IMG/VR virus record: IMGVR_UViG_3300020069_000003
Coordinates: 1 to 64,000 of that record
Strand: one strand, 5' to 3'
Length of the DNA: 64,000 nt
Source: a virus
Lineage: Duplodnaviria; Caudoviricetes
The position numbers and the translations under genes are program-made. A model generated the notes under the pieces. It saw nothing but the letters and a program-made list of their open reading frames with translations. It was not told where the DNA came from and did not search any database. This document shows, one piece after another, positions 1,052 through 63,081 of this stretch (position 1 is its first letter; each line of letters begins with the position of its first letter).

Positions 1052-1281
1052 CCGAGCCTGCATCCGCGCCAGCCGCCCACCTGATGACCGTTCGGGGCGC
1101 ACCGGAAGGGGGTGGTGTACTGGTCGGCCACCTGCGGTGCGAAGGCCCGGAGACGTACGTGCCGAACATGCCGGGCCAGGAGTACGCCCTGGTGATCGAC
1201 CAGATACAGGCGATCGTGCACCACGAGTGTCCGCCCGGTACCGGCGACAACGTGGGCGACGTGACGATAGGGGTGGTGTAG
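1048..1281 (+). CDS. hypothetical protein
   Basis: GTGA-coupled start, in frame with ORF 889..1281. Confidence 0.55.
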   Translation: MTEPASAPAAHLMTVRGAPEGGGVLVGHLRCEGPETYVPNMPGQEYALVIDQIQAIVHHECPPGTGDNVGDVTIGVV

Positions 1282-2027
1282 TGAGTGTCGAGAGCCGGGA
1301 ACCGGAGCCGGAGGAGCTGGTCGACCGCCTGAAGAGGGCGGTCCGCCGCCGCCCTGAGGTGTACGACCGCGAGGTGCGGCGTACGGTGAGAGAGGCCGAG
1401 TCCTTGACCCTGGCCCATCAGCGGGCGGTGTCGCAGTACCTGGCCGAGCAGGCGGGGGTGGTGTCGGGTGTGCCGGACGCTGCCTCGAGAGCGGTCGGGC
1501 ATGCCTGGCGCACCTACGACGATGTTGTGATCGAGATGATATTGAAGATCGACGATCGTCTGTTCATGGCACGCGAGCGGGTCGACGGCATGACCTGGGA
1601 GCTGAACTTCAAGCCTCGGGCCGACCGGTGGGAGGAGTTCTTGAACTTCTTCGCTCGCAAAGCGGTGGGTTCCATGTCTCAAGATCCCGAGCAGTTCGCC
1701 TACCTGCGGCGCAAGCTGTTCGTGGTCACCCCGGACGACCGGCACGACTCTCGACTGTGCCGGGCCTCCAACGACACCGGCCTGAACCAGGATCTGTGGC
1801 CGCGCTGTCTGTCGGGGGTGGTGCGAAAGGCCCTGCCCGTGAACCTGTTCTCGGTCATCGGTGACGGTGTCGGCCCTCAAGAGCTTCTGGCACAGCCGTA
1901 CCGTGACGGGCGCGCGCTGGGCAGGTGCCGCTGTCGGTGTCACCAGCATCCGCTGGCGGACGTCTGCGATCCCGAGTATCACAGCACCTACCTGGCCGAC
2001 TACGACGACCGCTTGTTCGTGGCGTAG
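1281..2027 (+). CDS. hypothetical protein, C-terminal Cys/His cluster
   Basis: GTG overlapping the upstream TAG; CRCRCHQH...C motif. Confidence 0.7.
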   Translation: MSVESREPEPEELVDRLKRAVRRRPEVYDREVRRTVREAESLTLAHQRAVSQYLAEQAGVVSGVPDAASRAVGHAWRTYDDVVIEMILKIDDRLFMARERVDGMTWELNFKPRADRWEEFLNFFARKAVGSMSQDPEQFAYLRRKLFVVTPDDRHDSRLCRASNDTGLNQDLWPRCLSGVVRKALPVNLFSVIGDGVGPQELLAQPYRDGRALGRCRCRCHQHPLADVCDPEYHSTYLADYDDRLFVA

Positions 2028-2054
2028 CGTCTGCGTCTGCGCTAAACTCGACAC

Positions 2055-2459
2055 ATGAGCTGGGAGAAGTGGGACCGAGACCACCGCCCGACGTCGGCCG
2101 ACAAGGCCGCGCGGTCGACCGGTGCGGATTGGGTCAAGCGTGAGTCGGATAATCTGACTCAACTGCACCCCGGACTCAAGCTCAACGTCAGTCGTAGTAG
2201 CGCCGGGCACGTGGTAGTGCACTCGATAGTGGTACCCAAGGACAACAGATCCGAAGGAGTAGGCAGCCACATCATGCAGCATCTTACCCGGCACGCCGAC
2301 GCCCACGGCGACACCATGGCGCTGACTCCGTCCAAGGATTTCGGCGGCACTGTATCCCGTCTGAAGATCTTCTACGGTCGACACGGGTTCAAGCCGAACA
2401 CCGGCCGAAGTCGAGATCTGTCGATCTCCGAGACGATGGTGCGGGAGCCGAAGAAGTGA
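2055..2459 (+). CDS. GNAT-like acetyltransferase with WxKWD leader
   Basis: IVVPKDNRSEGVGSHIM matches the acetyl-CoA motif A (R-x-x-G-x-G); RLKIFYGRHGF matches motif B. Confidence 0.75.
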   Translation: MSWEKWDRDHRPTSADKAARSTGADWVKRESDNLTQLHPGLKLNVSRSSAGHVVVHSIVVPKDNRSEGVGSHIMQHLTRHADAHGDTMALTPSKDFGGTVSRLKIFYGRHGFKPNTGRSRDLSISETMVREPKK

Positions 2460-2929
2460 GCGGTGCAGACGCAGACGGCGGGCAGTACACCAACGCGGTG
2501 TCGCGTGACCGCATGTCGAAGGGTTGGCCGCAGGACGTCGGCACGGCCAAGGCAGATCCATCGGCGGCCCAGGGAATCAACCAGTACCCGGGTGCCAACC
2601 CGACCACCGCCAAACAGCCTTCGGCGCTGGAGTACCAGACCTACGAGACAGTGCCGGGCCAGCAGCAGCACGTGGTGCACAAGGGGGTGCCGATCGGGTA
2701 TGTACAGAAGTACAACGACCCCGGGCACGGCCCGCTGTGGTCGGCTGTCATCGCAGACCAGGTACACGCCCGCAACCCCCACCGGGCACAGACCCAGCGC
2801 GGGTTTCTGCACGCTTCTGACGCTGTCGGGCATCTCACCGACGCCCATCGGGACGTGGCCCAGATCGAGTCCTCCGGTATCTGGCGACCCGGTCCGCCCG
2901 GTGGCGGTCCGAATCTCCCGGGTCACTGA
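2456..2929 (+). CDS. hypothetical protein
   Basis: GTGA-coupled 157 aa ORF. Confidence 0.7.
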   Translation: MSGADADGGQYTNAVSRDRMSKGWPQDVGTAKADPSAAQGINQYPGANPTTAKQPSALEYQTYETVPGQQQHVVHKGVPIGYVQKYNDPGHGPLWSAVIADQVHARNPHRAQTQRGFLHASDAVGHLTDAHRDVAQIESSGIWRPGPPGGGPNLPGH

Positions 2930-3070
2930 TGAACGCCCTATTGCGCAACTGGGACCAGGTCTGGCCCAATTTGGAGGGTAGCGCGGCGTGGTGCTGGCCA
3001 GCGCTGATCTGGCACCACCTGCTGATTAAGCGTCACATCAGCCGACTGTTTACAGAGAACGGAGGACGCC

Positions 3071-5733: not shown

Positions 5734-5734
5734 A

Positions 5735-7795: not shown

Positions 7796-7849
7796 GTTCG
7801 ACGTCTCCTCGGGCGGGGGTGGTGTAACGGGGTCCATTCTAGCATAGTA

Positions 7850-7864
7850 TTGTCTAGTTGGCAA
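7850..7864. promoter_or_regulatory. degenerate operator TTGTC-TAGTT-GGCAA in divergent promoter region
   Basis: Flanked by inverted copies of the GGGGGTGGTGT motif (7815+, 7867-). Confidence 0.5.
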
Positions 7865-7962
7865 GCACACCACCCCCGTCTGCGTCCGCACGGGCGTGGC
7901 CGACAGCGTGCCTCGAATGGTTCAATAGACCCAACTTGCTTGAACAGACTCGGAGGTCGTTG

Positions 7963-10153: not shown

Positions 10154-11524
10154 GTGAACTGGGCCAAGTGGGATGCCGAGCACGGGCATGGCGGTACCGG
10201 CGTGTCCTCGGCCGACAAGATCGCGGCCCAGATCCGAGGTGCGCTCGGAGCGGGCAAGACCGACGAGCCCAAGGTCAGGACAGTCCGAGGTCGCAGCGGG
10301 TCCACGATCTCCCGGGCCGAGTCGGCACGGTCGGCCGTCTCCCACGTCCAGAAGAGCGACATGAAGCGCCCTGCCCCGGTCAAGGGTGAGAAGGACCAGG
10401 CGGATTCGTTCCGGACCAAGATACGGATGGCCGAGTACAACCGCAAGAAAGCCGCCGCCGTGTCGCAGGACCCGGTCGACAAGCACACCCCGCGCACCGA
10501 GGCCCGGTCCAACCCTGCATCTGACTCGTCCAAGAAAATCGCTGACCAGATACGGGGGGTCCACGGGGCGCAGCACGGGAAGGACGTCCCCGCACCAGCT
10601 AAGAAGACGGCGCGCGCGCCCAAGACCGTCAAAACCGAGGCAGAGCCGACCTTGTACAAGGACGACGAGTACGGACGTGCGTCCAAGGCAGCGGACGAGG
10701 CGACCCGGAAGGCTGAGGCCGACCCGACCGACGAGAACCACAAGGCGGCGATGGCCGCCCACAGCTACGCGGCGGGCAAGCTGGGGTCCGGCAAGGTCAG
10801 CAGCAAGAACCCGGGCGCGGTTACGTACCACAACGCCATGCGTACGTACCACTACTACGCCAACCACCCGAACCGTCCGAAGGCGGGGGTGGTGGAGGAG
10901 CACGGGGACCGGGTGGACCCGAACGCGGCTGCCGGGCAGTTTCTGGACACGAGAAGCCGGGCAGCGTCTGAGGCTGCGTACAACTCCATACCGGAGGTGC
11001 GCAAGACGGGGGTGGGTCCGGAGCACCTGGACTCTGTCAGGGCGTACACCAAAGGGTCGGACGCCACCATCAACAGCCACCTGCGCAGCGGGCCCAGTTC
11101 CGACCCCAGCGTGGCAGCGCAGGCCCAGGGGCATATCGACCGGCTGGACGAGGCTTTCGCCAAGCAGGCTCCGCTGTCCAGCGACCTGACCTCGTACCGG
11201 GGCGTGTCCCACGTGGAGCAGCTGTTCGGCAAGGTGGGGGAGAGGGTGGGTAGCGAGTTTGTCGACCACGGATTCTCCAGTACCACCACCAACCCGGAGA
11301 TCGCACGGTCGTTCGGGGCACAGCATCAGGGCGGGGCGTTGCTGCGGGTCACCACCAAGGCCGGTACGCGAGTGTTGAATCCGGCCGGTGCGGGCGGGTT
11401 CGGACGGTCCGAGCGCGAGATCATGATGCCTCGGGGGTCTTCCTACCGCGTCAAGGCAGACCGTATGGTCAGGCTGCACGACGGCACCCTACAACGTCAG
11501 ATCGACCTGGAGCACGGAGGATGA
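10154..11524 (+). CDS. ADP-ribosyltransferase 1 (VIP2-like, R-S-ExE)
   Basis: YTKGSDATINSHLR, SYRG, GFSSTT, SEREIMMPR; basic N-terminal region with WAKWDAEH leader. Confidence 0.9.
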   Translation: MNWAKWDAEHGHGGTGVSSADKIAAQIRGALGAGKTDEPKVRTVRGRSGSTISRAESARSAVSHVQKSDMKRPAPVKGEKDQADSFRTKIRMAEYNRKKAAAVSQDPVDKHTPRTEARSNPASDSSKKIADQIRGVHGAQHGKDVPAPAKKTARAPKTVKTEAEPTLYKDDEYGRASKAADEATRKAEADPTDENHKAAMAAHSYAAGKLGSGKVSSKNPGAVTYHNAMRTYHYYANHPNRPKAGVVEEHGDRVDPNAAAGQFLDTRSRAASEAAYNSIPEVRKTGVGPEHLDSVRAYTKGSDATINSHLRSGPSSDPSVAAQAQGHIDRLDEAFAKQAPLSSDLTSYRGVSHVEQLFGKVGERVGSEFVDHGFSSTTTNPEIARSFGAQHQGGALLRVTTKAGTRVLNPAGAGGFGRSEREIMMPRGSSYRVKADRMVRLHDGTLQRQIDLEHGG

Positions 11525-11664
11525 CGGACGTGGCGGATTCGAAGAAGTCCAAGCGGTTCACCTGGACACCGGGCGACCTGGTGTGGAAAGATCGTCCTAC
11601 CAGTGCCCAGAAGCTGGCTGGTCAGGCGAGCGTGCCTAAGCGGAAGCAGGAGGGGAGCAAGTGA
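11521..11664 (+). CDS. micro-protein A (47 aa, TWxPGDxxW motif)
   Basis: MTDVADSKKSKRFTWTPGDLVWKDRPTSAQKLAG...; ATGA and GTGA overlaps with ART1 and ART2; not in the ORF track. Confidence 0.75.
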   Translation: MTDVADSKKSKRFTWTPGDLVWKDRPTSAQKLAGQASVPKRKQEGSK

Positions 11665-13754
11665 GCTGGGCCAAGTGGGACGCCGAACACCGCAGCGCCG
11701 GTGTGCGCGTGGCCGACGTAGGTGGCGGTCGGTCCAAGGTGACCTCGGGCGGCAAGCACCTGGGGAACATCGAGAAGCAGGGTAACCTGTACAAGGCCGT
11801 AACCAAGGTCAACGGGAACCTGCAGTCCCACACCGCCCTTACCCACCAGGGTGCGTTGAATCACATCCGGGCGGTGCACGGACTGCCTGCGGTGTCGTCC
11901 AAGAAAGCGGCTGCTCCTCAGGTCCCGCACGTCCCCGGCATGGGCCTGGCGTCTCCGAAGAAGACGGCGGCCAAAAAGACGGCAGCCGCCGCCCCCAAGA
12001 CCGCTGCCGCAGCCCGCGACGCCATGCACGCTCCCGCACCGGCCAAGAAAACCGCCGCGCCCTTCCACGCCTGGAACGCTGAACACGGATCGGGCGGGGG
12101 TGGTGTATCGTCCGCCGACCAGATCGCCGCTTCGATCCGGGGTGCGCTCGGTCCGGGCAAGATGGACGCGCCGAAGATGACGTCCAAGACCGGCAAGTCC
12201 GGGTCGACCATCTCCCGGGCGGCCGAGTCGCGCTCGACCGCCGCGCACGTCCTGAAGAAGGACATGAAGCGTCCGGCACCGGTGAAGGGCGAGAAGGACC
12301 CGGCCGACGCCTTCCGTACCAAGATCCGCATGGCCGCCTACAACGAGAAGAAGAAGCAGGCGGTGGCGGCCGACCCGGTGAACGCGCACACCCCCCACAC
12401 CGAAGAGGCCCTGAACCCGCACGACATGTCTCCGACGGACAAGGCAGAGGCCTATATGAAGGCTCGCAAGGCTGCCAACGCCGCAGGGTCGAAGGCGATG
12501 CAGGAGAATACCGTAGCGGCCCACCAGGCGGCCTACGACGCCCACAACAAAGCGATGGGCCTGGCCACCAGCTACGGGATCAAAAAAGGCCACAGGGGCA
12601 ACATGGAGCTGCACGCCAAGCAGATCCAGAAGCTCGGCGGTACGGTCAACCCGGGCAAGGGAGCGCCCGCCGCCAAGAAAACGGCGGCGTCGTCCTCGGC
12701 CGACAAGATCGCGGCGGCGATCAAGGGCGCCCACGCCGAGCAGCACGGCAAGGTGGTACCCAGCGCCCCGGCGGTGAAGAAGGCAGCTGCGCCCAAGGCC
12801 AAGGCTCCGAAGGTGACTCACACCGTCCCGGCCCTGGTGGAGAACAAGCACGCGGAGGGCAGCACGGAGGACCTGGCGGACAAGGCGGACGCTGCTACCC
12901 ACGCCGCCAACGCCAGCCCGTCGTACGTCAATCACCAGAAGGCGTATCAGGCTCACGCGGCGGTGCTGTCGAAGCTCGGCAGCACGTCGCACTCCGGGTC
13001 CGACCAGTACAAGGCCCGCGACTACCACACCATGATGCAGGGATACCACCGGTTCGCGGCCGACCACCCGAGCAAGGTGATCCCGGCGGGAGTGAAGGAG
13101 GAGCACACGGACAAGCTGGCCGACCGGATACCCCAGGCCAGCGCACACCAGATGTTTACCTCGTTCACCGAGAGCAACTCCCGGCGGCACTCCCAGCAGC
13201 TGTACACGGCGCTTCCGAGGGCGTCCGAGGCCAAGCTGACGGCGGCCGAGAAGTCGTCGATCGGGGCGTACTCCAGCAGCGGATACGGGACGATCAACGC
13301 GCACCACCGCAACCCCGGAAAGCTGTCCGCAACCGACAAGGCGTACGCCGAGAAGCACACCGCCAACCTGGACTCGGCGTTCAGGAAGCAACCCGCTCTG
13401 GAGCACGACCTGGTGACCTACCGGGGGACCCGGGAAGCGGACAAGCTGTTCGGCAAGGTGGGGGAGAAGGTCGGGGGCGAGTTCGTCGACCACGGATACA
13501 CCAGTACCGCTACTCACGCGGCGGTCGGCGGCGGATTCGGCGGCGGCATGGCCGGTAGCAACACCAACACGCTGGTCCGCATCCTGCATCCCCAGGGGTC
13601 CAAGGTGATGAAGCTGTCCGACACCAGCAGCTTCGGCGATTCCGAGCGGGAGATCCTGACACCGCGCGGCACCCGGTTCCACATCGCCGCCGACCGGATC
13701 GTCACGCTACAGAACGGCCGGACTCAGCGGCAGGTGGACCTGATCCGCAAGTAG
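11661..13754 (+). CDS. ADP-ribosyltransferase 2 (VIP2-like, R-S-ExE)
   Basis: YSSSGYGTINAHHR, TYRG, GYTSTA, SEREILTPR; K/A-rich N-terminus, paralog of ART1. Confidence 0.9.
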   Translation: MSWAKWDAEHRSAGVRVADVGGGRSKVTSGGKHLGNIEKQGNLYKAVTKVNGNLQSHTALTHQGALNHIRAVHGLPAVSSKKAAAPQVPHVPGMGLASPKKTAAKKTAAAAPKTAAAARDAMHAPAPAKKTAAPFHAWNAEHGSGGGGVSSADQIAASIRGALGPGKMDAPKMTSKTGKSGSTISRAAESRSTAAHVLKKDMKRPAPVKGEKDPADAFRTKIRMAAYNEKKKQAVAADPVNAHTPHTEEALNPHDMSPTDKAEAYMKARKAANAAGSKAMQENTVAAHQAAYDAHNKAMGLATSYGIKKGHRGNMELHAKQIQKLGGTVNPGKGAPAAKKTAASSSADKIAAAIKGAHAEQHGKVVPSAPAVKKAAAPKAKAPKVTHTVPALVENKHAEGSTEDLADKADAATHAANASPSYVNHQKAYQAHAAVLSKLGSTSHSGSDQYKARDYHTMMQGYHRFAADHPSKVIPAGVKEEHTDKLADRIPQASAHQMFTSFTESNSRRHSQQLYTALPRASEAKLTAAEKSSIGAYSSSGYGTINAHHRNPGKLSATDKAYAEKHTANLDSAFRKQPALEHDLVTYRGTREADKLFGKVGEKVGGEFVDHGYTSTATHAAVGGGFGGGMAGSNTNTLVRILHPQGSKVMKLSDTSSFGDSEREILTPRGTRFHIAADRIVTLQNGRTQRQVDLIRK

Positions 13755-13986: not shown

Positions 13987-15082
13987 CACCCCGGCCGAGC
14001 AACAGGCTGTGTCAACGGTGACGGTGGAGAACGCCGCCGCCGTCGCAGCCATGTTGGTGCTGGAGAAACATGCGGTCGAGGCCGTGTCCGGACCCCTGCG
14101 CAGGCAGCTGTCCGACACTCTCCGGCTTCTGGCCAGCAGGTATGTGCTGATGTTCGGGGGACTGGACCGTTCCACCACCCCCGCCCAGGCACAGCAGCTC
14201 GTCAGCGTATTGACTGTCGAGCTGGAGCAGATTCGACAGTACGACCCGGTACCGGCGCTGACCGCCGCCACCGACGATGCCCGACGGGCGGGGGTGGTGT
14301 ACGCCAACCGGCACCTGCCGGACCCGGTGTCGGAGGCAGAGGTACCGGTGGACAAGGCCGTACAGGACGCGGTCGAGGCTGCCCCGGCCGCGATCTCCGA
14401 CGCTGTGGACGCGGCGCAGCAGTTTGCGCAGCAGCTGCCCATCACCGGCTGGGACGACGCCGTGCGGGCGGTGGGCAAGGCCAGCCAGGCGGCCTCGAAC
14501 CTGGAGGGGCGAACCTCCTGGGTGGTCAACCGGGCCAACTCGTCCTCGATCTCCTACATCGCCGCCCAGCGCGGCGCCCTGCTGCTGTGGGTGGCGGAGC
14601 CGGACGCCTGTGTAGTCTGTCTGGCGCTGTCTGGACACACGGTCAACCCGGCCGAGGGCGAAGGATTTGACGAGACGGCCACTTTCGGAAAGCCGGGGTC
14701 GGCACCGGATATCTACCCGCCCGGTATGCCGCTGATGCGTCCGCCGCGTCACCGATATTGCCGCTGCCACCCGGAGATCTGGTACGGCCCGGCGGTACCG
14801 GCGGGCGGCCCCGAGGAGACCTCGCTGTACAACCGGCCGGGGGTCGGGGCCAACGTGGACCTGCCCGCCGCTCTGCGGCGCGAGGCCAAGCGGTCGATCC
14901 TGTACGGATGGTCGCTACCCAGCGAATCCAATATTTCACGACTCGATGCTGCGGCCCGTCTGCTGGCCAAGGGCGCAGGTCTTCCGAAGTCGGTTGAGGC
15001 CAAGTCCCGCGCGGCAGTCAACAAGGGCAAGTTCGACAACCGGGTACATCCGTCGAAGAGGCGCACTGCACACCGTCCGTAG
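13958..15082 (+). CDS. MuF-like minor capsid protein (start uncertain)
   Basis: WVAEPDACVVCLALSG and PPRHRYCRCH motifs of the SPP1 gp7/MuF family. Confidence 0.85.
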   Translation: MTEPTNSAGNTPAEQQAVSTVTVENAAAVAAMLVLEKHAVEAVSGPLRRQLSDTLRLLASRYVLMFGGLDRSTTPAQAQQLVSVLTVELEQIRQYDPVPALTAATDDARRAGVVYANRHLPDPVSEAEVPVDKAVQDAVEAAPAAISDAVDAAQQFAQQLPITGWDDAVRAVGKASQAASNLEGRTSWVVNRANSSSISYIAAQRGALLLWVAEPDACVVCLALSGHTVNPAEGEGFDETATFGKPGSAPDIYPPGMPLMRPPRHRYCRCHPEIWYGPAVPAGGPEETSLYNRPGVGANVDLPAALRREAKRSILYGWSLPSESNISRLDAAARLLAKGAGLPKSVEAKSRAAVNKGKFDNRVHPSKRRTAHRP

Positions 15083-18419: not shown

Positions 18420-18438
18420 GCGGGAGGGGGTGGTGTAG

Positions 18439-20314: not shown

Positions 20315-20417
20315 CCCGGCGCTCGTCCCACAAGCAAGCACCAGCGCCGTCCCCTGCAGCCGGGGTAGACCCGGTAGGGGGTGGTGTAACGACCCGACGT
20401 AGAGGAGGGTGTGTTCG

Positions 20418-27874: not shown

Positions 27875-27889
27875 GGGGGGTGGTGTAGG

Positions 27890-32670: not shown

Positions 32671-32727
32671 ACACCACCCCCGCCGGGGATCACTCGGCTG
32701 CCCAGAGCCGACCGGCGGGGGTGGTGT
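32671..32727. terminator. 16-bp inverted repeat built from the polar motif, between convergent operons
   Basis: ACACCACCCCCGCCGG ... CCGGCGGGGGTGGTGT. Confidence 0.6.
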
Positions 32728-32741
32728 ACGGGGGTTCGGGG

Positions 32742-38399: not shown

Positions 38400-38434
38400 T
38401 CCGGGCGGGGGTGGTGTAGCGGGTTTCGCACTAC

Positions 38435-42355: not shown

Positions 42356-43294
42356 GTGGAACAACCGAACAAGTACAACCAGTCGCTGGACGACATGGCC
42401 GAGTACCTGAACATCCTGTACTACGGCGACCCCGGGTCGGGCAAGACCTCCGCCGCCGCCGCCATGGCTCATCTCGGTACGGTCTACCTGCTGGACGTCG
42501 AGTCCGGCGCCAAGAAAAAGCCGCTGCGCAAGCTGGGTATCCCGGTCCAGCGGATCCGGCCGGTGACGATCGCCTGCTACAAGGACATCGACGACTTCTA
42601 CTGGTACCTCAAGCAGGAGCTGGAGGACGGCGCCGACGTCGCGGGCGTGGTGTTCGACTCGATCACCGAGATCCACGATACCCTGATCGCCGAGCAGGTG
42701 GGCGTTCGGCACGCCAAGGCTGTGAAGAAGGTCACCGCGCGCGACGGGTCCCTGATCCAGGACGTCGACGACAACGAGTTCCTAGTCGAACTCCCCGAGC
42801 GCGGCATCGTGACTGAGCAGCTGCGCCGGATCACCCGCCGGTTCCGCGATCTGCCGTGCCACACCGCGTTCACCGCGCTGGCCAAGCGCGACGTCGACGC
42901 GAACGGGGAGGGGGTGGTGTATCTGCCCCAGCTCCCGCCGAAGTTCGGCACCCAGCTGCGCGGTTTCGTGGACGTGGTCGGATACTGCTCGAAGGCCCCG
43001 TCGATCGATGACGCGTCCGGGTACCTGGGTGTGTTCCGGGACGTGGGCAAGTACAAGGGCAAGGACCGCCTGGGCGGTCTGCCGGTGGTGATGGCGGATC
43101 CGTCGTTCCACCGGGTGAACCAGGTGATCTTCGAGGAGCTGGACCTGGGGTCCGACCCCACCCAGTCCCGGTACCTGGACCGGATCCAGGCCTCGCGCAC
43201 GCCGGACCCGGCGCCGGAGGAACCCACCGGCCCGCAGCCGGAGAAGTTCGACGAGAACCAGCCCGCCGACGACCAGGAGTCGGCTGCCGCATAG
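42356..43294 (+). CDS. AAA ATPase (AAA_24/Sak4-like)
   Basis: GDPGSGKT, LLDVESG, VFDSITE, GKDR. Confidence 0.85.
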   Translation: MEQPNKYNQSLDDMAEYLNILYYGDPGSGKTSAAAAMAHLGTVYLLDVESGAKKKPLRKLGIPVQRIRPVTIACYKDIDDFYWYLKQELEDGADVAGVVFDSITEIHDTLIAEQVGVRHAKAVKKVTARDGSLIQDVDDNEFLVELPERGIVTEQLRRITRRFRDLPCHTAFTALAKRDVDANGEGVVYLPQLPPKFGTQLRGFVDVVGYCSKAPSIDDASGYLGVFRDVGKYKGKDRLGGLPVVMADPSFHRVNQVIFEELDLGSDPTQSRYLDRIQASRTPDPAPEEPTGPQPEKFDENQPADDQESAAA

Positions 43295-43370: not shown

Positions 43371-43844
43371 ATGCCCAAGCTGAGCACCGCAACCGCCACC
43401 AAGGTCGAAGAGGCCGAGGACTCCTTCAAGCCGATCCCGGAGGGGATCTACAACGCCGTGCTGGACGGCGAGGTGGAGGTGAAGGACGGCACGAACGGTC
43501 CCTACTGGAAGTGGACCTTCAAGATCACCGAAGAGGGCTACGAGGGCCGCCAGCAGTGGCTGAACACGTCGCTGTCGGAGAAGGCGCTGTGGAAGCTGAA
43601 GGAGGTCTTCGAGGCCTTCGGCTACCCGGCCGACACCAACACCGACGACCTGATCGGCAAGCCGGTCAAGCTGATGATCGTTCAGAAGATCATCGACGGC
43701 GGCACCCGCAAGGGAGACACCGGCAACGACATCCGGCAGGTCCTGCCGCACAACCAGGCCACGACCGACGCCCCGGCGGCGTCCGGTGGCGCCAAGGCCA
43801 AGTCGAAGGCCAAGACCGCCGAGGAAGACGTCCCGCTGTTCTAG
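43371..43844 (+). CDS. single-stranded DNA-binding protein (DUF669-like)
   Basis: FKPIPEGIY, YWKWTFKI, DLIGKPV; acidic C-terminus EEDVPLF. Confidence 0.8.
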   Translation: MPKLSTATATKVEEAEDSFKPIPEGIYNAVLDGEVEVKDGTNGPYWKWTFKITEEGYEGRQQWLNTSLSEKALWKLKEVFEAFGYPADTNTDDLIGKPVKLMIVQKIIDGGTRKGDTGNDIRQVLPHNQATTDAPAASGGAKAKSKAKTAEEDVPLF

Positions 43845-47487: not shown

Positions 47488-49173
47488 ATGTCTGACGCAC
47501 TGTCCAGGCACAACCCGTACGATCCGCCGCAGACCCAGCCGCTGCCGGGTCGCGAAACCGAGATGGTTCGCAACCCCGAGGGCGGCTACGTCTTCGTCAA
47601 GGACGTGTGGACCCGGCTGTCCGATTTCCTGGTGCTGGGTACCGAGGGCGGGACCTACTACGCCGACGAGCGCACCCACACCTACCAGAACATCGAGGCG
47701 GTGCGGCTCGCGCTGCTGGAGGACGGCCCCCGGGCGGTCCAGACCGCAGTGGAGTACTCCACCGGACGCCCGCCCCGCGCCCCGCGCAACCACCCGGCCC
47801 TGTACGTCGTCGCCTACGCGCTGGCGGCGGGCGACCTGGAGACCAAGCGGGCGGCGGCCAAGGCCGTGCCCAAGGTCGCCCGCACCACCGACCACCTCGC
47901 CCACCTGTTCGGCTACTGGAAGCAACTCAGCTCGAAGCCGGGCGGGCGGGGTGGTGCAGGGCGCGCCCCGGTCGGTGCGAACTCCCGGGCGACCCGCCGT
48001 GCCTGGATCAGCTGGTTCACGGACCGCACGCCGGAGCAGGTGGCGTACACCCTGCTGAAGGGACGGTCCCGCAAGACCGGGTCGGGCGAGGACTTCAGCC
48101 CCGGACACCTGCTGTCGCTGGTCCGGCCGGTGCCGTCGAACGAGGCCGAGCAGGCGCTGTACGCACTGGCCACCGGCCGCAAGACCCCGATGGAGGTGTC
48201 GGGCCACTTCGCCGCCGCGAAGGCCTTCTACGAGGCGCAGCGTGCGGACACCCCGGCCAAGGCGGTCAAGGTGATCAACGCCTACCACGTCCCGTGGGAG
48301 TTCCTGCCGGACGAGGTGCTGAAGGACGCCAGGGTGTGGCGGGCGCTGATCCCCCACCTGGGCATGACCGCCCTGATCCGCAACCTCGCCCGGATGACCA
48401 GTCTCGGGGTGTTCGAGCCGTTCGACGAGTCGGTGGGGCGGGTGGTGTACCGACTGACCGACGCGGGCGAGCTGCATCGGGGCCGAATCCACCCGTTCGA
48501 TCTGCTGCTGGCGCGTCTGGTGTACTCTTCCGGGTTCGCCCAGCCGAATCTGAAGGCACCGGCCCGTACCTGGGTGCCGGACGGACAGATAGTCGATGCG
48601 CTGGATCTGGCGTACACGCTGGCCGTCCAGGTTGCCGACAAGTCCCCCGGCCGCCTGGTCGTCGCGGTCGACTCATCCGGTTCGATGGGCCAGATGGTCC
48701 GGCACGGCGGGTCCCACCTCGGGTCGTGCTACCACCTCGGTACGGCGGTCGCGGCCACCCTGATGCGCAGCTTCGACGGCGACTGCTACCCGGTCGAGTT
48801 CGACAGCGTCTGCAGGCCGTCGAAGCTGCGGGCGGGGATGTCGCTGGGCGAGATCTACAGCCTGCGGCACGACGGCGGCGCCACCGACTGCTCCGCCCCG
48901 ATCGAGTGGGCGCTGCGGAACAACGTCGTGTGCGATGCGTTCGTGCTGATCACCGACAACGTCAGCTGGTCGGGCAACCGCCACACCTCGAAGGTCCTGG
49001 AGGACTACCGGCGCTCGATCAACCCCCAGGCGCGTGTGATCGTGTCGGCGATGGTGGCGAACGGACACTCGGTGGCCGATCCGACGGACCCGGGTGTGGT
49101 CAACGTCGGCGGTTTCGACTCCAGCCTGCCGACCCTGATCGCGGGCTACATGCGGACCGGCGGCGCGTTCTGA
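47488..49173 (+). CDS. rsr: Ro60/Rsr TROVE-domain RNA-binding protein
   Basis: MVRNPEGGYVF, FLVLGTEGGTYY, MTALIRNLARM, RIHPF; vWA MIDAS DSSGSM, GGATD, LITDN. Confidence 0.93.
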   Translation: MSDALSRHNPYDPPQTQPLPGRETEMVRNPEGGYVFVKDVWTRLSDFLVLGTEGGTYYADERTHTYQNIEAVRLALLEDGPRAVQTAVEYSTGRPPRAPRNHPALYVVAYALAAGDLETKRAAAKAVPKVARTTDHLAHLFGYWKQLSSKPGGRGGAGRAPVGANSRATRRAWISWFTDRTPEQVAYTLLKGRSRKTGSGEDFSPGHLLSLVRPVPSNEAEQALYALATGRKTPMEVSGHFAAAKAFYEAQRADTPAKAVKVINAYHVPWEFLPDEVLKDARVWRALIPHLGMTALIRNLARMTSLGVFEPFDESVGRVVYRLTDAGELHRGRIHPFDLLLARLVYSSGFAQPNLKAPARTWVPDGQIVDALDLAYTLAVQVADKSPGRLVVAVDSSGSMGQMVRHGGSHLGSCYHLGTAVAATLMRSFDGDCYPVEFDSVCRPSKLRAGMSLGEIYSLRHDGGATDCSAPIEWALRNNVVCDAFVLITDNVSWSGNRHTSKVLEDYRRSINPQARVIVSAMVANGHSVADPTDPGVVNVGGFDSSLPTLIAGYMRTGGAF

Positions 49174-49712: not shown

Positions 49713-50212
49713 TGCCTCTGAAGGAGAGGGTCGAGGTGTTCTGGGACGGTACCCGGGTCGGCCGGGTACCGCTGCCCCACGAGATCGAGGCGGTGGTCCT
49801 GCTGTCCGAGTCGTCGGGCGTCCGGGAGGTCTCGAAGAGGCTGGGCCTGCAGGAGCAACGGGCCCAGTACTGGATCCGGGGCGCGATGTACAAGCTGCAC
49901 GCGGCCTGCTCCTCCGAGGCCCTGTACCAGCTGTACCGGCTGCAGCTGGTGAAGACCCCGTCGAACCCGTGGCTGCAGCCGATCCTGGAGCCCGACCAGC
50001 GCGACCTGCTGTACATGCTGTGCCGGGAGGGCCTGAACTACGACCAGGTAGCCGCCCGCCTGAAGATCGGACACAACCAGGTCGGTAACCGGACCCGGTA
50101 CATGTTTGAGATCTTGGGGGCGACCCACCGGGTCCAGGCCCTGCGTCTGGCGGTAGAGCGCGGGGACGTCAGGATACGGCCGCCGAAGGACCTGTGGAAG
50201 GGGGTGGTGTAG
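49712..50212 (+). CDS. tandem LuxR-type HTH protein
   Basis: Two HTH repeats (REVSKRLGL; DQVAARLKIG...THRVQAL). Confidence 0.75.
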   Translation: MPLKERVEVFWDGTRVGRVPLPHEIEAVVLLSESSGVREVSKRLGLQEQRAQYWIRGAMYKLHAACSSEALYQLYRLQLVKTPSNPWLQPILEPDQRDLLYMLCREGLNYDQVAARLKIGHNQVGNRTRYMFEILGATHRVQALRLAVERGDVRIRPPKDLWKGVV

Positions 50213-50607: not shown

Positions 50608-52578
50608 ATGACACCTACACTGACTTGGGGTCAGGCCGAGCAGGGTCTGGCCGAGCACTGGGGCAGCTTCTCCAGCCGCACCCAGCAGCGCGACTACGCG
50701 CACGCCGTTACCGAGACCCTGCACCGCAACGCCAAGAACCGGGTGCGCATGGCCCAGGCGGGCGTCGGCTGCGGCAAGTCCCTGGGCTACCTGATCCCGG
50801 CGATCGCCACCGGCGGACGCGTGGTGGTCGCGGTGTCCACCAAGGCGCTGCAGGACCAGCTGTTCCTGAAGGACCTGCCTTTGCTGAAGCAGGCGCTGTT
50901 CCCGGACCTGACCTACGCAATACTGAAGGGCCGGTCCAACTACGTCTGCCTGCGGGCGGCCGACAAGTCGGGCCACCCGGCGGGGGTGGTGCAGGGCTCG
51001 GCGGGCGAGCGCACCGACCTGGTAACCCCGGTTACCGACGAGCAGTGGCGCGAGATGACGGTAGACGCCGAAGGCTGCGTCGGCCGCAAGGCCTGCCCGT
51101 TCTCGGACAACTGCTACAGCGAGGCGGCGAAGCTGCGCGCGCTGTCGGCCCGGGTGCTGGTGGTCAACACCAGCCTGCTGACCCAGGACCTGAAGCTGCG
51201 GGCGATGACCCGGGGCAAGGCCTCCCTGTTCGGCGATTACGACTGCCTGATCGTGGACGAGGCGCACGAGATGCCCGACATCGTGGCCGGTGGCCTGTCC
51301 ATCCAGGTCACGCTGCACCGGATCTTGGACGCCACCTCGAAGCTGGCCTACCACCTGGACGCGGCCGGTGCCCCGTCCCAGGTCGAGAAGGTCAACACCG
51401 TGGCCAGCCAGTACTTCAACCAGATCTCGGACTGGTTCCGGGGCCAGCGCGACGCCCGCACCGCCGATCTGGCCGAGGACGACCGCCGGTCGGTCGGCCA
51501 GATCGTCGACGCCCTGCAGCCTCTGGTCGAGTGGGTCTCGCGTGCTCAGTGCAACTGCGAACCGATCATCGACCCGGAAACCGGCGAGGAGGACCTGGTG
51601 TGCGAGTACAACCGCCGGATGTCCTCCCTCATGACCGACCTGTGCAAGTTCGCCGCTCCGGAGTCCGAGGACTCGCCCACCGACGTGGTGTGGATGGAGA
51701 CGGTCGGACGTCGCGGTGCGGTGGCGCTGAAGTCGTCCCCGGCCGAGGTCGGCGGCTGGCTGCGCGCGGTGCTGTGGGAGGGTTTCAACACCTCCCGGGG
51801 TGAGCGCGAGCTGCCGACGGTGCTGACCTCGGCGACGCTGGCGGTCGGCGGAGACTTCACCTACCTGGCCCGCAGGCTCGGTATCCCGGCCTACGACGAC
51901 ATCGACGTCGGCACCCCGTTCGACTACGGCAAGCAGGCGATGCTGTACCTGCCCCCGATGTCCGCCCCCAGCCCGAAGAAGGGACTGGAGTGGAAGCAGT
52001 GGGCGCAGGACCAGATGTACCAGCTGGTCGAGGCGTCCGGCGGTGACGCGCTGATGCTGTTCACCAGCGTCTCGGCGATGCGGGAGGCTCACGAGAGGGT
52101 GGGCCCGCGTCTGGAGCGGCTGGGGATCGCCAGCCGGATGCAGGGCGATGGCATGGACAACCGGGCGCTGGCCGGGTGGTTCGCCAGCAATCGCCGGAAC
52201 GTCCTGTTCGCCACCCGGTCGTTCATGACCGGGGTGGACTTCCAGGGCGACACCTGCCGCCTGGTGGTGGTGGACAAGATGCCGTTCCAGCCGCCGGAGG
52301 ACCCGGTGTTCAAGACCCGGTGCAAGCTGGTGGAGCAGCGGTTCGGCGAGCGCTCCTCCTTCAGCCGGGTATCCATCCCCGACATGGGGATGGTTCTGCA
52401 GCAGGCGGGCGGGCGCCTGATTCGGTCGGTCCACGATCGGGGGGTGCTGGCGATCCTGGACCCCCGGATGCGGGCGGGATGGGCGGCCCCGATCCGGCGC
52501 AGCCTGCCGAAGATGGCCGACGCCCAGACGATCGAGCAGGTCCGGCAGTTCTACCGCCAGCTGGCGCTGGTGGACTGA
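50608..52578 (+). CDS. dinG: DinG/YoaA-family Fe-S helicase
   Basis: AGVGCGKS, LKGRSNYVC, C-x4-C-x5-C, VDEAHE, TSAT, TGVDFQG, QQAGGRLIR. Confidence 0.9.
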   Translation: MTPTLTWGQAEQGLAEHWGSFSSRTQQRDYAHAVTETLHRNAKNRVRMAQAGVGCGKSLGYLIPAIATGGRVVVAVSTKALQDQLFLKDLPLLKQALFPDLTYAILKGRSNYVCLRAADKSGHPAGVVQGSAGERTDLVTPVTDEQWREMTVDAEGCVGRKACPFSDNCYSEAAKLRALSARVLVVNTSLLTQDLKLRAMTRGKASLFGDYDCLIVDEAHEMPDIVAGGLSIQVTLHRILDATSKLAYHLDAAGAPSQVEKVNTVASQYFNQISDWFRGQRDARTADLAEDDRRSVGQIVDALQPLVEWVSRAQCNCEPIIDPETGEEDLVCEYNRRMSSLMTDLCKFAAPESEDSPTDVVWMETVGRRGAVALKSSPAEVGGWLRAVLWEGFNTSRGERELPTVLTSATLAVGGDFTYLARRLGIPAYDDIDVGTPFDYGKQAMLYLPPMSAPSPKKGLEWKQWAQDQMYQLVEASGGDALMLFTSVSAMREAHERVGPRLERLGIASRMQGDGMDNRALAGWFASNRRNVLFATRSFMTGVDFQGDTCRLVVVDKMPFQPPEDPVFKTRCKLVEQRFGERSSFSRVSIPDMGMVLQQAGGRLIRSVHDRGVLAILDPRMRAGWAAPIRRSLPKMADAQTIEQVRQFYRQLALVD

Positions 52579-52750: not shown

Positions 52751-52793
52751 GGGCGGGGGTGGTGTAGGGCGCTGCTCTGCACCACCCCCGCCC
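52751..52793 (+). terminator. 17-bp hairpin built from the polar motif
   Basis: GGGCGGGGGTGGTGTAG / CTGCACCACCCCCGCCC with one G-U pair. Confidence 0.65.
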
Positions 52794-59291: not shown

Positions 59292-59785
59292 ACGCCCGCA
59301 AGGTACAGGTAGCGGCGGTGACCAGCTCGATGGTGACCGCCGCTACCTCCGCGTTTGCCTGGGCACTGACCCGGTGGGTCGACAGCCTGGCCCTGCGCTA
59401 CACGGTGCCGCTGGTGGTGTTCGGCACGGTCTGGGTTCTGACGGTGTCGTTCGCCGCCGGTGTCGCCTGGACGGCGGCCGAGCAGTTCGGTGTGTGGGCG
59501 GCCAAGCCCAAGCCGCCGCGCCCCCCGGGCCCGACGCCCCCGCCGCCGCAGCCGGGCGAGACACCGCGTCCGGCGCCCGGCCCGATCCAGCCCAGACCGC
59601 CCCGCCCGCCCAGGCAGGAGCTGCTGGCCGAGACCACCCTGGTCGACATGGAACCAGTCACCGAGACCCGGGAGATACCGGCGTGTGTCGACCGGATGGA
59701 AGAGCCGGTCGGGTACGTCCCGGTCTGGCGTCCCCCTGCGTCCAGTACCGCCCGCGAGCTTGTGGAAGGGAAGGCCGTTAAATGA
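59288..59785 (+). CDS. two-TM protein with Pro-rich tail
   Basis: TTGA-coupled. Confidence 0.55.
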   Translation: MNARKVQVAAVTSSMVTAATSAFAWALTRWVDSLALRYTVPLVVFGTVWVLTVSFAAGVAWTAAEQFGVWAAKPKPPRPPGPTPPPPQPGETPRPAPGPIQPRPPRPPRQELLAETTLVDMEPVTETREIPACVDRMEEPVGYVPVWRPPASSTARELVEGKAVK

Positions 59786-62193
59786 TTGAACCATCCGGCA
59801 CCCTCGTCGGCGACGTCCTGCTGCCGGAGCTGCCGCCCGGTACCTGGGTCGCCTACGACACCGAGACCAACGGGCTGCACCCGGACGGCGACCCCGGCAC
59901 CGACAGCGGCGACCCCGGCTCGCCCCCCGCGCGCGTGGCAACCGCCAGCATCGCGTACCGGGATCCGGGGGACCCCGGTCGGATATTGAAGTACGCCTGG
60001 GGGTTCGACCAGGGCCCGCACCCCAGCAAGGACGGGCGGATACGGCGCCCCCGGGAGGGGGGTGGTGTAGAGCCGCTGGACGTCGAGAAGCTGCTGGCGA
60101 ACCTCGCCAAAGCCGGATACAACAACGGCTGGCGGGACCAGATCGGCAAGAACGGCAAGCCGCTGAAGACCCGGCTGGCGGTGCCGTGGACGGTTGAGCA
60201 GTCGTACGAGGCGGTCGGGCTGGACTCGTGGCTGCGGCTGCTGGCGTGGCTGCAGCGCCGCGACCAGCTGGTGATGCACCACCGAAAGTTCGACGAGTGG
60301 ATGACCTGGGTCGGCCCCCGCAACTGGCGCATCCGCCACGAGTGGGTGCACAACCCGGCGCTGCGCCAGACCGTCCAGCAGCTGGGGGTGTACGACCCGG
60401 AGCTGATCGATCAGCTGATGGCGGATGACCCCGATCGGGACGTAGGAGGGTGGTTCGGTGCCGATCTGGATCTGACGGCCGACGGTCACGAACGACCCGT
60501 GCGGGGTATCTGGGACACCATGCTGGTGCAGGCGTTCTTCGACCCGGACCAGTCGGTCGCGCTGAAGAAGTCCGCCAAGCGGCTGTTCGGGGTGGACGCC
60601 GACGCCGACCAGAAGGCATTGCTGGCGGCGATGGGCAAGCAGGGTACCGGACTCACCAAGCGGTACGACCTGACCCCGTGGAAGATCATGGGGCCGTACG
60701 CCGCCACCGACCCCGAGCTTACCCTGCTGCTGGCGGAGAATCAGCTGCGCCGGATCTCCGAGGGCGACCACCCCGGGGACTCCCGGTTCCCGCAGCACCC
60801 GCACCTGCGCAACCCCAACCTGGTGTGGGACCAGATCGACAAGGAGTTCGAGCTGTCCCGGGTCCTGCTGAAGATGGAGAAGCGGGGGGTGGGATACGAC
60901 GTCCAGACGTCCAAGCTGGGGGCCCGGCGTCTGCAGGCCGAGATGGAGCGGGTGCGCCAGACCATCCCGTACGACCCGACCAAGCTGGACGAGATCCGCA
61001 GGTTCTATTTCGCACCGAAGTCCGAGGGCGGGCTCGGGGTCATGCCGCTGAAGCTGTCGGAGAAGACCAACGTGCCCTCGGTCGACGAGGCCCAGATGCG
61101 GCTGCTGATGCAGTCGGGGCACCCGGGCGCGGCCGAGTACGACCAGTGGTCGCACTGCAAGTCCGCCCTGGGCAAGTGGTACCGGGGATGGGCCGACCGC
61201 ACTGGTACGGACGGGCGTCTGCGCACCAGCTTCAAGCAGTGCGTGATGGCGGAGGAGCGGGCCGGTGCGAAACCCGGCGGCACGATCTCCGGCCGCCTGG
61301 CCGTCGGCCGGGTCCAGCTGCAGGCGATACCGCACAACGGCCAGCTGCCGGAGGTGGTCCGGGACATCCCGGTGCGCGACCTCATCCACGCCCGGCCGGG
61401 CCACGCCCTGTGGGAGATGGACCTGCCGCAGGGCGAGGTCCGGATAGCCACGGTGGTGGTGAACTGCCGGGCGATGTGGGACGTGATCGACTCGGGCGAG
61501 GATCTGCACGGGGCCAACGCCAAGCGTATCTTCGGCGTCACCGAGGACGACCCCCGGTTCAAGGACCTGCGGGGCGTGGCCAAGCGCATCGTGTTCGGCA
61601 CGCTGTACGGCGCGGGGGTCCGGACCCTGCGCAAGCAGATACTGGAGTTCACCGGGATCGACTACTCGGAGGACGAGACCCGGGAGGCGAAGCAGGCTTT
61701 CGAGCACACCTACCCGGAGTTCCCCCGAGTCGCCCGCCAGATCCAGCGCAAGGCCGACCGCACGCTGGGCGGCGCGGGGTACGTGAACCTGGTCGACGGG
61801 CGCAAGCGCTGGTTCGGTCCGGACGAGTTCGGCCACAAGGCCTTCAACGCGGTGATCCAGGGCGGCCTGGCCCAGTCGGGCAAGACCTGGATGATCCAGG
61901 TCGAGCGCCAGCTGCCGGGCATCCAGGTGCTGGCGATCCACGACTCGATCGTGGTGGAGGTTCCGGACAACGAGGCTGGGGCGGCGCAGGCCGCGCAGGT
62001 CGCCGCGATCGGCAAGCAGGTGTACGAGCGCGACTACGGCACCCGGGGACGCACGATGTACTTCGACATCGTCCCCGAGCGCTGGGACGAGAAGGAGCCC
62101 CCGGCGCCGACAGGCCTGGCGGACAAGGTTCGCGCCCAGCTGGCCGAGCACCGTGCCAACTCGGTAGAGGGCTTTAGGCAGCTGACCTCATGA
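59782..62193 (+). CDS. polA: family A DNA polymerase (3'-5' exonuclease plus polymerase, no 5'-3' exonuclease)
   Basis: YDTET, HHRKFD, YAATD; motif A DLPQGEVR, motif B AKRIVFGTLYG, motif C IHDSI. Confidence 0.93.
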   Translation: MIEPSGTLVGDVLLPELPPGTWVAYDTETNGLHPDGDPGTDSGDPGSPPARVATASIAYRDPGDPGRILKYAWGFDQGPHPSKDGRIRRPREGGGVEPLDVEKLLANLAKAGYNNGWRDQIGKNGKPLKTRLAVPWTVEQSYEAVGLDSWLRLLAWLQRRDQLVMHHRKFDEWMTWVGPRNWRIRHEWVHNPALRQTVQQLGVYDPELIDQLMADDPDRDVGGWFGADLDLTADGHERPVRGIWDTMLVQAFFDPDQSVALKKSAKRLFGVDADADQKALLAAMGKQGTGLTKRYDLTPWKIMGPYAATDPELTLLLAENQLRRISEGDHPGDSRFPQHPHLRNPNLVWDQIDKEFELSRVLLKMEKRGVGYDVQTSKLGARRLQAEMERVRQTIPYDPTKLDEIRRFYFAPKSEGGLGVMPLKLSEKTNVPSVDEAQMRLLMQSGHPGAAEYDQWSHCKSALGKWYRGWADRTGTDGRLRTSFKQCVMAEERAGAKPGGTISGRLAVGRVQLQAIPHNGQLPEVVRDIPVRDLIHARPGHALWEMDLPQGEVRIATVVVNCRAMWDVIDSGEDLHGANAKRIFGVTEDDPRFKDLRGVAKRIVFGTLYGAGVRTLRKQILEFTGIDYSEDETREAKQAFEHTYPEFPRVARQIQRKADRTLGGAGYVNLVDGRKRWFGPDEFGHKAFNAVIQGGLAQSGKTWMIQVERQLPGIQVLAIHDSIVVEVPDNEAGAAQAAQVAAIGKQVYERDYGTRGRTMYFDIVPERWDEKEPPAPTGLADKVRAQLAEHRANSVEGFRQLTS

Positions 62194-62465
62194 GCGCCAG
62201 GGAGCGGATGGTCGAGGTGGTTCGCCAGGCGCTGGCGCGGGAGGCCGTGTGTGAACAGACTGTGGAGTCGCTGACCGCCCACGTGGCCGAGGCCGTGGTC
62301 GGCGCGCTGGTGGCGCACGGACCGGCTGTCGACGGCGGCAGCTACCGGGCCGGGTGGCTCATCGGTTACGGCCGGGTGCACGACGTCACCGAAACCAGTA
62401 TGGAGGACGGACTGTACCACGTCTGGACCCGGGACCTCGACCCGGACAGCCCGGACTACGACTAG
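62190..62465 (+). CDS. hypothetical protein
   Basis: ATGA-coupled. Confidence 0.65.
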   Translation: MSARERMVEVVRQALAREAVCEQTVESLTAHVAEAVVGALVAHGPAVDGGSYRAGWLIGYGRVHDVTETSMEDGLYHVWTRDLDPDSPDYD

Positions 62466-62479
62466 AGAGACGAGGGACA

Positions 62480-62794
62480 ATGAAACCGCTGATCAACGAG
62501 GAAGACCCGGGGTACTACAGCGCCCAGACCGAGGCGGTCGAGGCGGTGGGGGAGTCGATCCGACGGGACGGTGACCTCAGGTCCGACCACACCGTCTCCG
62601 CCTACGCCTGGGCGGCGATGGGGGCGCTGTGCGAGACCGACCCGGATCTGCCGGAGGGCGGCTGGCTGTTCGTCCGAGGCCGGGTGTACCGGGTGACCGA
62701 GGCCGAGCAGGTCGACGACGGCGAGAACCGGGACGGCGTCCTGTGGGCCGTCGAGACCCGACCGGAGCGGGACGAGGAGGAGGACGAGCAGTGA
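62480..62794 (+). CDS. hypothetical acidic protein
   Basis: GAGGGA SD. Confidence 0.65.
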   Translation: MKPLINEEDPGYYSAQTEAVEAVGESIRRDGDLRSDHTVSAYAWAAMGALCETDPDLPEGGWLFVRGRVYRVTEAEQVDDGENRDGVLWAVETRPERDEEEDEQ

Positions 62795-63021
62795 CCACCG
62801 TCAAGACCGTGATCGAGGTGTCGGACGGCGCCGAGATGCACGTCGGTGTGAACGCCGAGGGACGGATGTACGTCCGGATCGGCGGTGAGCACGAGCAGCA
62901 GGTCGAGATCGTGTGCTCCAGCTACGACACCATCCGGATGGCGTCCGAGATCATGGACCGGACCGCCGGATACGTCTCGGAGCTGGAGCGCCAGCTGGCC
63001 CGGTGGGTGAACACCGGGTGA
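62791..63021 (+). CDS. hypothetical protein
   Basis: GTGA-coupled. Confidence 0.65.
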   Translation: MTTVKTVIEVSDGAEMHVGVNAEGRMYVRIGGEHEQQVEIVCSSYDTIRMASEIMDRTAGYVSELERQLARWVNTG

Positions 63022-63081
63022 CCCGGTTTACCTCGTCAGTCTGACTGTACACCGGTGGGGCGGGGGTGGTGTACTGGCGCG

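Follow-up and report, generated by a model that had tools for sequence, protein, structure and literature searches.

A one-strand 17-nt word in a clade of rhizosphere phages, possibly a start signal for the phage replication machinery

Why should one short word be written again and again on the same strand of a phage chromosome, and which protein reads it? The question is raised by the 12-mer GGGGGTGGTGTA in a 64,000-nt stretch of DNA (the window; positions 1 to 64,000 of IMG/VR record IMGVR_UViG_3300020069_000003; Duplodnaviria, Caudoviricetes), which represents most of a 77,480-bp phage contig of 66.7% GC. The ends of the contig overlap by exactly 123 bp (1–123 = 77358–77480), so that the assembly closes into a circle. 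The 12-mer is present 20 times on the plus strand and once on the minus strand of the window, and its 10-mer core GGGGGTGGTG 37 and 12 times, respectively, exactly as counted in an earlier note on this DNA. In the whole genome, plus to minus ratios are 21:2 for the 12-mer and 42:13 for the 10-mer. Analysis of these copies and of related genomes suggests that the word is best explained as a DNA-level, one-strand signal for the phage's own replication or recombination machinery, with the phage PrimPol-helicase as the proposed reader.

Copy numbers of the word are far above those expected by chance. In 100 dinucleotide-preserving shuffles of the window, the 12-mer averages 0.01 copies and the 10-mer core 0.66, never exceeding 3, while in the actual genome sub-strings of the word are the commonest 8-, 10- and 12-mers. 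As a control for codon usage, synonymous codons were shuffled within each of 113 genes, called by a custom codon log-likelihood script and not by a standard gene finder, keeping both the protein and the per-gene codon usage. The enrichment persists under this control, with 11 copies of the 12-mer inside genes against 0.12 expected, and 31 plus-strand copies of the 10-mer inside genes against 2.7 expected; both kinds of shuffle taken together expect only 0.01–3 copies. Reading frames of the copies in plus-strand genes agree with those reported earlier; frame 2 (x-G-V-V) holds 17 of them and frame 0 (G-G-G-V) nine, and frame 1 is empty. Copies in frame 0 make use of rarer codons, GGT being 18% of the glycine codons and GTA 7.7% of the valine codons. 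Because of the codon-controlled excess, the distribution over frames and the rare codons of the frame-0 copies, we conclude that selection acts on the nucleic acid itself, within the tolerance of the proteins.

Alignment of all 134 plus-strand GGGTGGTG sites from three genomes (the present phage, G000, and its relatives G001 and G002) gives the consensus GGGCGGGGGTGGTGTAG and reveals that the full word is about 17 nt long, GGGCGGGG-GTGGTG-TAG. Its G-rich conservation spans exactly the 8 positions that precede the first GTG(G), GGGNGGGG being the block immediately before GTGG, whereas the fifth base upstream is free. On the 3' side of the second GTG, the three nucleotides T, A and G are conserved, and composition is that of the background beyond them. 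A 17-nt profile with a threshold of at least 20 bits finds 31 plus and 8 minus sites in G000, 23 and 1 in G001 and 20 and 3 in G002. By the same profile, G003 and G004 have no site on either strand and G005 has a single plus site. A literature search found no paper naming the word as a phage signal; a match from the literature on P. acnes phages is a single predicted promoter.

Orientation of the word follows the chromosome and not transcription. About 86% of the coding DNA is rightward and about 13% leftward, and the leftward genes of G000, G001 and G002 contain nine strong sites on the plus strand, antisense to the gene, and none on the minus strand. These nine represent 12% of the plus sites, which matches the leftward share of coding DNA (13%), so that the density is the same as elsewhere. 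The earlier note had drawn such a polarity from the copies at 5955, 7815, 32772 and 34537, which are indeed on the plus strand within leftward genes, and the larger set bears it out. With a 9:0 antisense ratio, sense transcripts cannot be where the signal is read, and the word differs in this from stoperators, which follow transcription. Plus-strand sites are also more evenly spread than random ones in all three genomes (coefficient of variation of the gaps 0.54–0.71 against about 0.95; P between 0.001 and 0.04), with a mean gap of 1.8 kb for the 10-mer and 3.7 kb for the 12-mer. Minus-strand copies cluster in the virion module, where 9 of 13 are found in G000 (14–33 kb), 9 of 11 in G002 and 3 of 4 in G001. 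Three of the minus copies in a tail gene are also present in the motif-less G005 and are therefore probably protein-driven.

Comparison with relatives shows that the word is conserved in part by position and that its presence follows a set of replication genes. Aligned orthologous DNA of G000 and its relatives is about 72% identical, and the exact 10-mer is kept in about 11 of 23 aligned site comparisons against about 4% expected; the other sites have turned over. Among relatives found through the portal protein, the word has the same polarity in G001, G002 and the fragments L003, L009, L012 and L015 and is absent from G003, G004, G005, L006–L008, L010, L011, L013 and L014. It is also present in the fragments L314, L315 and L317. 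The motif-less G003, G004 and G005 share virion genes with G000 (portal 61–79% identical) and not the replication module; the portal of G005, at 79% identity, is as close to that of G000 as the portals of motif-positive genomes are. The replication and recombination block is common to the motif-positive genomes and missing from the negative ones.

A DUF6011 protein and a dUTPase-like protein belong to this block. Its other members lie on the plus strand and, in the window, include a PD-(D/E)XK (Cas4-like) exonuclease (40970–41851), a Sak4-like AAA_24 annealing protein (42356–43294), a DUF669 protein resembling single-stranded DNA-binding proteins (SSB-like; 43371–43844) and an 820-aa fusion of a PrimPol domain, PriCT-1 and a P-loop helicase (43959–46421; PF09250 E 1.8e-18, PriCT_1 E 7e-9, Walker A motif GSESGKTT). 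A DinG/XPD-like helicase (50608–52578) and a family A DNA polymerase, PolA, with a 3'–5' exonuclease domain (59782–62193) are also among them, together with a homologue of adenylosuccinate synthetase (PurA, PurZ-like) whose start, with the P-loop GSEGKG, occupies 63681–64000 and which runs past the end of the window. PF09250 is detected in G001 and G002 and not in G003–G005; G003 has instead an integrase, a different PolA and an SNF2-type helicase.

A search with the PrimPol-helicase recovered three fragments, beyond those found through the portal, that carry the word at plus to minus ratios of 5:1, 6:0 and 6:0, and two genomes, G411 and G412, which share only the replication block with G000, at 30–53% amino-acid identity. 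The first of these (PrimPol 49% identical) carries a related word, CGGGGGCGGTGGCG, in which a G-rich block of equal length is followed by GTGG. In G411, GGGGGCGGTG is present at 10:4 against a Markov expectation of 0.14, and genes contain 14 copies of GGCGGTGGCG, compared to 1.5 expected when synonymous codons are shuffled. The sequences compared thus suggest that word and replication module move together and that the word exists in one or more variant forms, although independent lineages are few and G412 is a counter-example. A 14-mer scan of IMG/VR gave multiple matches only in relatives already identified.

Other repeated words were seen in these relatives. An apparent polar motif of G003 is not an equivalent of the word, being a 24-bp tandem array of about 20 GGTGACGCTCGCGCTGCCCGAGGC-like units at both contig ends (L024:1–270 and the end of L027), which mimics a polar motif in k-mer counts. 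The candidate in G004 (L028–L031) was likewise rejected; it is an intergenic word, GTGACTATCTGTCAA, present at 6:1 (17117, 17151, 29486, 38207, 41157, 41649 and 59219) and operator- or promoter-like in appearance. Words of G412 (L325–L329) are purely intergenic, namely GGGGGGTAACGG at 8:4 and the AT-rich GTGATTTAAT and TGGTTTAATTG.

A further possibility is that the phage imitates a signal of its host. Among the matches listed, a 14-mer search of 185,579 species genomes gave scattered single matches only. The 12-mer has at most 8 copies per genome in 401 Actinomycetes genomes and the 11-mer at most 37 copies (in 6.4 Mb; about 6 per Mb) in 251 Actinomycetes genomes, compared to about 470 per Mb in the phage. 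Both counts are near those of the reversed-word control, and the word is about 80-fold or more less dense in the sampled actinobacterial genomes than in the phage. Six unpublished genomes in the sample (G016, G024, G033, G039, G041 and G052) have at most 5 copies each, and the statement is independent of them. A direct count over 800 kb of one Actinokineospora chromosome gave 13:10, with balanced sub-8-mers and no Chi-like density. An apparent replichore skew of 53:4 over 2 Mb in Actinokineospora was discarded as an artefact of a match list that dropped minus-strand rows. These counts argue against mimicry of a host signal, as far as host-like genomes were sampled. The translocase motifs KOPS (FtsK-orienting polar sequences) and SRS (SpoIIIE recognition sequences), offered earlier as analogies, resemble the word in being polar and rich in G (GGGNAGGG, compared to the GGGNGGGG with which the word opens). 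However, they are host chromosomal 8-mers skewed by replichore, and neither KOPS nor host-Chi mimicry gains support from the 13:10 count. In the same 800 kb (L274–L313), 10-mers of the TTGGGTTGGG type occur 37–38 times on one strand and never on the other, probably as one tandem array.

Because the word is read as DNA, points one way, recurs evenly every 2–4 kb, is specific to a lineage and is linked to the replication module, a replication-coupled use of one strand fits best. Of the phage proteins that the earlier note had put forward as readers or for binding tests, the nuclease (40970) and the primase-helicase (43959) co-occur with the word in the genomes compared, and either could be its reader, whereas a repressor, the LuxR-like protein and the helix-turn-helix (HTH) protein found no such backing. 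We favour the primase-helicase and propose, with a rough probability of 0.37, that the copies are strong priming sites for it on the template of the lagging or displaced strand. Its known counterparts have short and defined start rules. ORF904 of plasmid pRN1 primes only at 5'-GTG-3', starts its 8-nt primer immediately 5' of the GTG and is sensitive to the base 3' of it (PMC2034472, PMC13469122). The PrimPol of phage NrS-1 favours GTGG or GTGA, and a specific site of 8 nt, TTTGGTTA, is known for it as well (PMC8718748). Like these, the present enzyme is a PF09250 PrimPol with a C-terminal helical domain and a helicase fusion, and the word matches the site rule of GTG(G) with about 8 nt of primer template directly 5'. 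It has a GTGGTG core, its 8 conserved bases lie where ORF904 starts its primer, and the base 3' of GTG is conserved. As to distribution, the word is present alongside the PrimPol in the clade of G000, G001 and G002, absent where PF09250 is absent, in variant form in G411 and in no clear form in G412.

In such a mechanism, GTGG or GTG with the 3' neighbours TAG would be the recognition element of the 17-nt site, and the eight G-rich bases 5' of it would template a very stable, C-rich primer of unit length. With the plus strand as template, primers would extend leftwards and forks would move rightwards, co-directionally with about 86% of the coding sequence, and Okazaki-type fragments would take their length from sites every 1.8–3.7 kb. 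A small number of copies have a second role as ribosome-binding spacers, stop codons or stems of intergenic hairpins. A bolder form of this proposal, which we regard as doubtful, is that soil phages of one clade, equipped with a PurZ-type (2-aminoadenine) replication module, mark one strand of the genome with a dedicated 17-nt start code. An 8-nt block of G and C only would template a primer without A, Z or T, the PrimPol element GTGGTG-TAG would follow, every lagging-strand fragment start would be fixed in this way, and variants of the lineages would co-evolve with the primase.

Several observations weigh against priming by the PrimPol. GTG and GTGG are very common in a genome of 67% GC, so that the need for a 17-nt site must be assumed, as a distinction of strong and weak sites. 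Known PrimPol sites are 3–4 nt long (8 nt for the one NrS-1 site) and are not described as selected, evenly spaced, strand-specific words of a whole genome. The minus strand also holds 8 copies of the 10-mer inside genes against 1.0 expected after synonymous shuffling. Junctions and intergenic DNA, 12% of the sequence, hold 36–48% of the copies, a 3–4-fold enrichment which could reflect a function at gene boundaries and not cheap placement. G412, with a PrimPol 48% identical and the same module, has no clear genome-wide word inside genes. The exonuclease, Sak4, two helicases and several uncharacterised proteins of the module co-occur with the word equally well, and the motif-positive genomes form one clade, which makes the phylogenetic signal thin. 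Finally, a search against PDB sequences found no match for the PrimPol, and an AlphaFold model of its residues 1–400 is poor (mean predicted local distance difference test score, pLDDT, 56.8), which leaves Pfam as the sole basis for homology to ORF904.

The sequence GGTGGTG within the word resembles E. coli Chi (GCTGGTGG), and a Chi-like signal controlling recombination or a nuclease is an alternative that we consider unlikely, though not to be neglected. A helicase-nuclease that loads at one type of DNA end would then read the word as single-stranded DNA of the 3'-ended strand; it could be either host AdnAB or RecBCD or the phage Cas4-like exonuclease, itself an alternative candidate reader, with the DinG-like helicase or Sak4. 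The role of the word would be to protect concatemers or to seed recombination-dependent replication. Being G/T-rich, belonging to the commonest octamer family, lying about 80–95% in one orientation and recurring once per 1.4–3.7 kb, the word is a close parallel to the Chi sites of phage LLS, which number 23, lie in the active orientation in 20 cases and recur once per 1.86 kb (PMC12315714). Chi-rich phages such as LLS and P1, which rely on host RecBCD, share with it a G/T-rich commonest octamer at about one per 2 kb and about 87% in one orientation. The orientation relative to the terminase genes would be that of lambda-active Chi if packaging proceeds rightwards, and the word co-occurs with the exonuclease and Sak4 module. 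However, Chi is a host 8-mer abundant in the host chromosome, while the phage word, of 12–17 nt, reaches a useful density or skew in no sampled actinobacterial genome. Known Chi sites are conserved over 5–8 nt and not 17, and the literature search found no Chi for AdnAB. Sites of LLS cluster toward one end, whereas the copies here are evenly spread. Chi-rich lambdoid phages are moreover those without a Rec module of their own (PMC12315714), and the present phage has an exonuclease, a Sak4-like protein and a DUF669 SSB-like protein.

Rather improbable is a second alternative, in which a phage enzyme nicks one strand of virion DNA at the word, similar to what is known from T5, phiKMV, tf and Rembedalsseter. 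Nick-associated motifs of such phages (TACTRTGMC in tf, WACTRTGAC in Rembedalsseter) are 9–19 nt long and lineage-specific, have 4–14 copies nearly all on one strand and mostly in genes, and are shared by relatives with little nucleotide identity (PMC11780129). These formal features match the counts, the polarity and the distribution among relatives of our word, which is also at least 9 nt long, mostly genic and kept in diverged genomes. Known nick motifs, however, keep to one strand almost without exception and are concentrated near one end of the genome, whereas the word has 30–55 copies, 76–94% on one strand (6–24% of the good sites being on the other), and is evenly spaced. In addition, no integrase, immunity repressor, HNH nuclease, nickase or methyltransferase family was found among about 60 phage proteins scanned.

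Binding sites of a regulator, similar to stoperators or operators, or boundary elements of promoters and terminators are a less probable explanation still. The word faintly resembles the L5 stoperator GGTGGcTGTCAAG. Like the stoperators of cluster A mycobacteriophages, which are asymmetric sites of about 13 bp with 20–36 copies per genome, phage-specific variants and frequent positions at junctions, it is an asymmetric site of 12–17 bp with 20–40 copies and a 3–4-fold enrichment at junctions, and three inverted pairs of it form intergenic hairpins. Stoperators, however, are oriented by transcription (PMC6550527) and read by the immunity repressor of a temperate phage, and the word is oriented by the chromosome, 9:0 antisense in leftward genes, in a genome whose scanned proteins include neither an integrase nor such a repressor; the stoperator analogy drawn earlier is not borne out. 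The only clear HTH protein (37828, HTH_3) is shared with relatives that lack the motif, and the LuxR-like protein at 49712 is unique to G000. Half of the copies are deep inside genes, at uniform relative positions. A promoter was considered and set aside, as no more than 3 of 21 copies yield a TANNNT hexamer resembling a −10 element and the distance from start codons is unsuitable.

An element acting in RNA, either an extended Shine-Dalgarno-like pairing with the 16S rRNA 3' end (GGGGGUGGUGUA can form 11 of 12 base pairs with 3'-CCUCCACUAGGU-5', G-U allowed) or a two-tetrad G-quadruplex on transcripts or the displaced strand (GG-N-GG-N-GG-N-GG being possible in principle for every copy), has the least to recommend it, since the word is equally dense and still on the plus strand, and hence antisense, in leftward genes, and a quadruplex would leave the conserved TGTAG tail unexplained. 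About seven genes do start 3–9 nt after a copy (1281, 10154, 18439, 27890, 32480, 49536 and 50214/50220), but a start codon follows only about 7 of 42 plus copies (about 15%), which differs from the start-associated sequences of cluster K phages and from Shine-Dalgarno sequences, and ordinary genes of the phage use GGAGG or GAGG.

Individual copies of the 12-mer in the window occupy diverse positions relative to genes. Inside plus-strand genes, copies in frame 0 are located at 1108–1119 (GGG GGT GGT GTA; conserved in G002), 12096–12107 (in a gene with an ADP-ribosyltransferase domain), 23236–23247, 26469–26480 (in a 1074-aa tail gene), 44367–44378 (in the PrimPol gene; identical in G001), 46113–46124 (also in the PrimPol-helicase gene) and 60058–60069 (in the PolA gene), and copies in frame 2 at 14290–14301 and 42910–42921 (in the Sak4-like gene). 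The copy at 44367–44378 encodes an invariant GGGVV, conserved in 8 homologues, yet uses the rare codons GGT GGT GTA, so that protein motif and DNA word coincide here. At gene junctions, the copy at 18426–18437 is followed by GTG at 18439 and is conserved in G002, and that at 27876–27887 is a few nucleotides ahead of the GTG start at 27890. Those at 32468–32479 and 50200–50211 lie at gene ends and terminate the upstream gene with their TAG, which in the former is overlapped by the GTG of the next gene; the stop codons that had been ascribed to the motif at junctions in general are supplied by these two copies only. Intergenic copies are present at 20377–20388 (kept in G002, variant in G001), 36645–36656 (at the start of the rightward early region; GGGGGAGGTGGTGTA in G002), 38407–38418, 52755–52766 and 63062–63073. 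Of the two remaining plus copies, 7815–7826 is situated in a divergent region and overlaps the 5' end of a leftward gene, and 32717–32728 in a convergent intergenic region. The sole minus-strand 12-mer of the window, 28763–28774, is in a tail gene, is also found in the motif-less G005 and is therefore probably protein-driven.

Three of these plus copies face inverted copies of the core on the minus strand (7815 with 7868–7877, 32717 with 32672–32681 and 52755 with 52780–52789). The pairs are 15–43 nt apart (window 7815–7877, 32672–32728 and 52755–52789) and form strong, GC-rich intergenic hairpins between divergent, convergent or tandem genes, which may be terminators built from the word. Without the TA ending, the 10-mer core has 17 further plus copies, starting at 1454, 1814, 3092, 5761, 5955, 10028, 10885, 18588, 31094, 32772, 34537, 39949, 50982, 56401, 56485, 57704 and 57846 (span 1454–57855). 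Its 11 further minus copies start at 990, 7868, 14173, 17978, 19744, 21879, 26710, 28465, 29122, 32672 and 52780 (span 990–52789), and 8 of these are in the virion module (14–33 kb); together with 28763–28774, the module holds 9 of the 12 minus copies of the window.

The phage itself is uncultured and comes from rhizosphere metagenomes, where it is present in Logan contigs of 2017 rhizosphere runs. Identity of its portal to those of Streptomyces phages and other actinophages does not exceed 40%, and megablast against GenBank phages gave no match. Terminase (TerL), portal, capsid and tail genes were identified, and lysis-type enzymes of the GH25 and GDSL families are encoded. Two large proteins with C-terminal ADP-ribosyltransferase (PF03496) domains are located between the portal and head genes (10154–11524 and 11661–13754). 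A protein with Ro60/TROVE and vWA domains (47488–49173) is also present in all five full-length relatives, including the motif-less ones. A leftward operon (33476–36340, minus strand) encodes a glycosyltransferase and an NAD-dependent epimerase/dehydratase, which are 63–84% identical across G001, G002 and G005.

Strand-specific words spread over whole phage genomes are already known, in the form of nick motifs and Chi, and their function is mostly obscure. The signature of the present word is unusually clean, being codon-controlled, independent of transcription, even, partly conserved in position and tied to one exchangeable gene module. What appears to be new is that a word of 17 nt is at once evenly spaced, linked to a PrimPol/PurZ module and built of two parts in keeping with the rules of primases. 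If the priming reading is true, this would be the first phage to fix its lagging-strand start sites by a long selected word, and the word would offer a direct assay for the specificity of the uncharacterised phage PrimPol-helicases linked to Z-type genomes.

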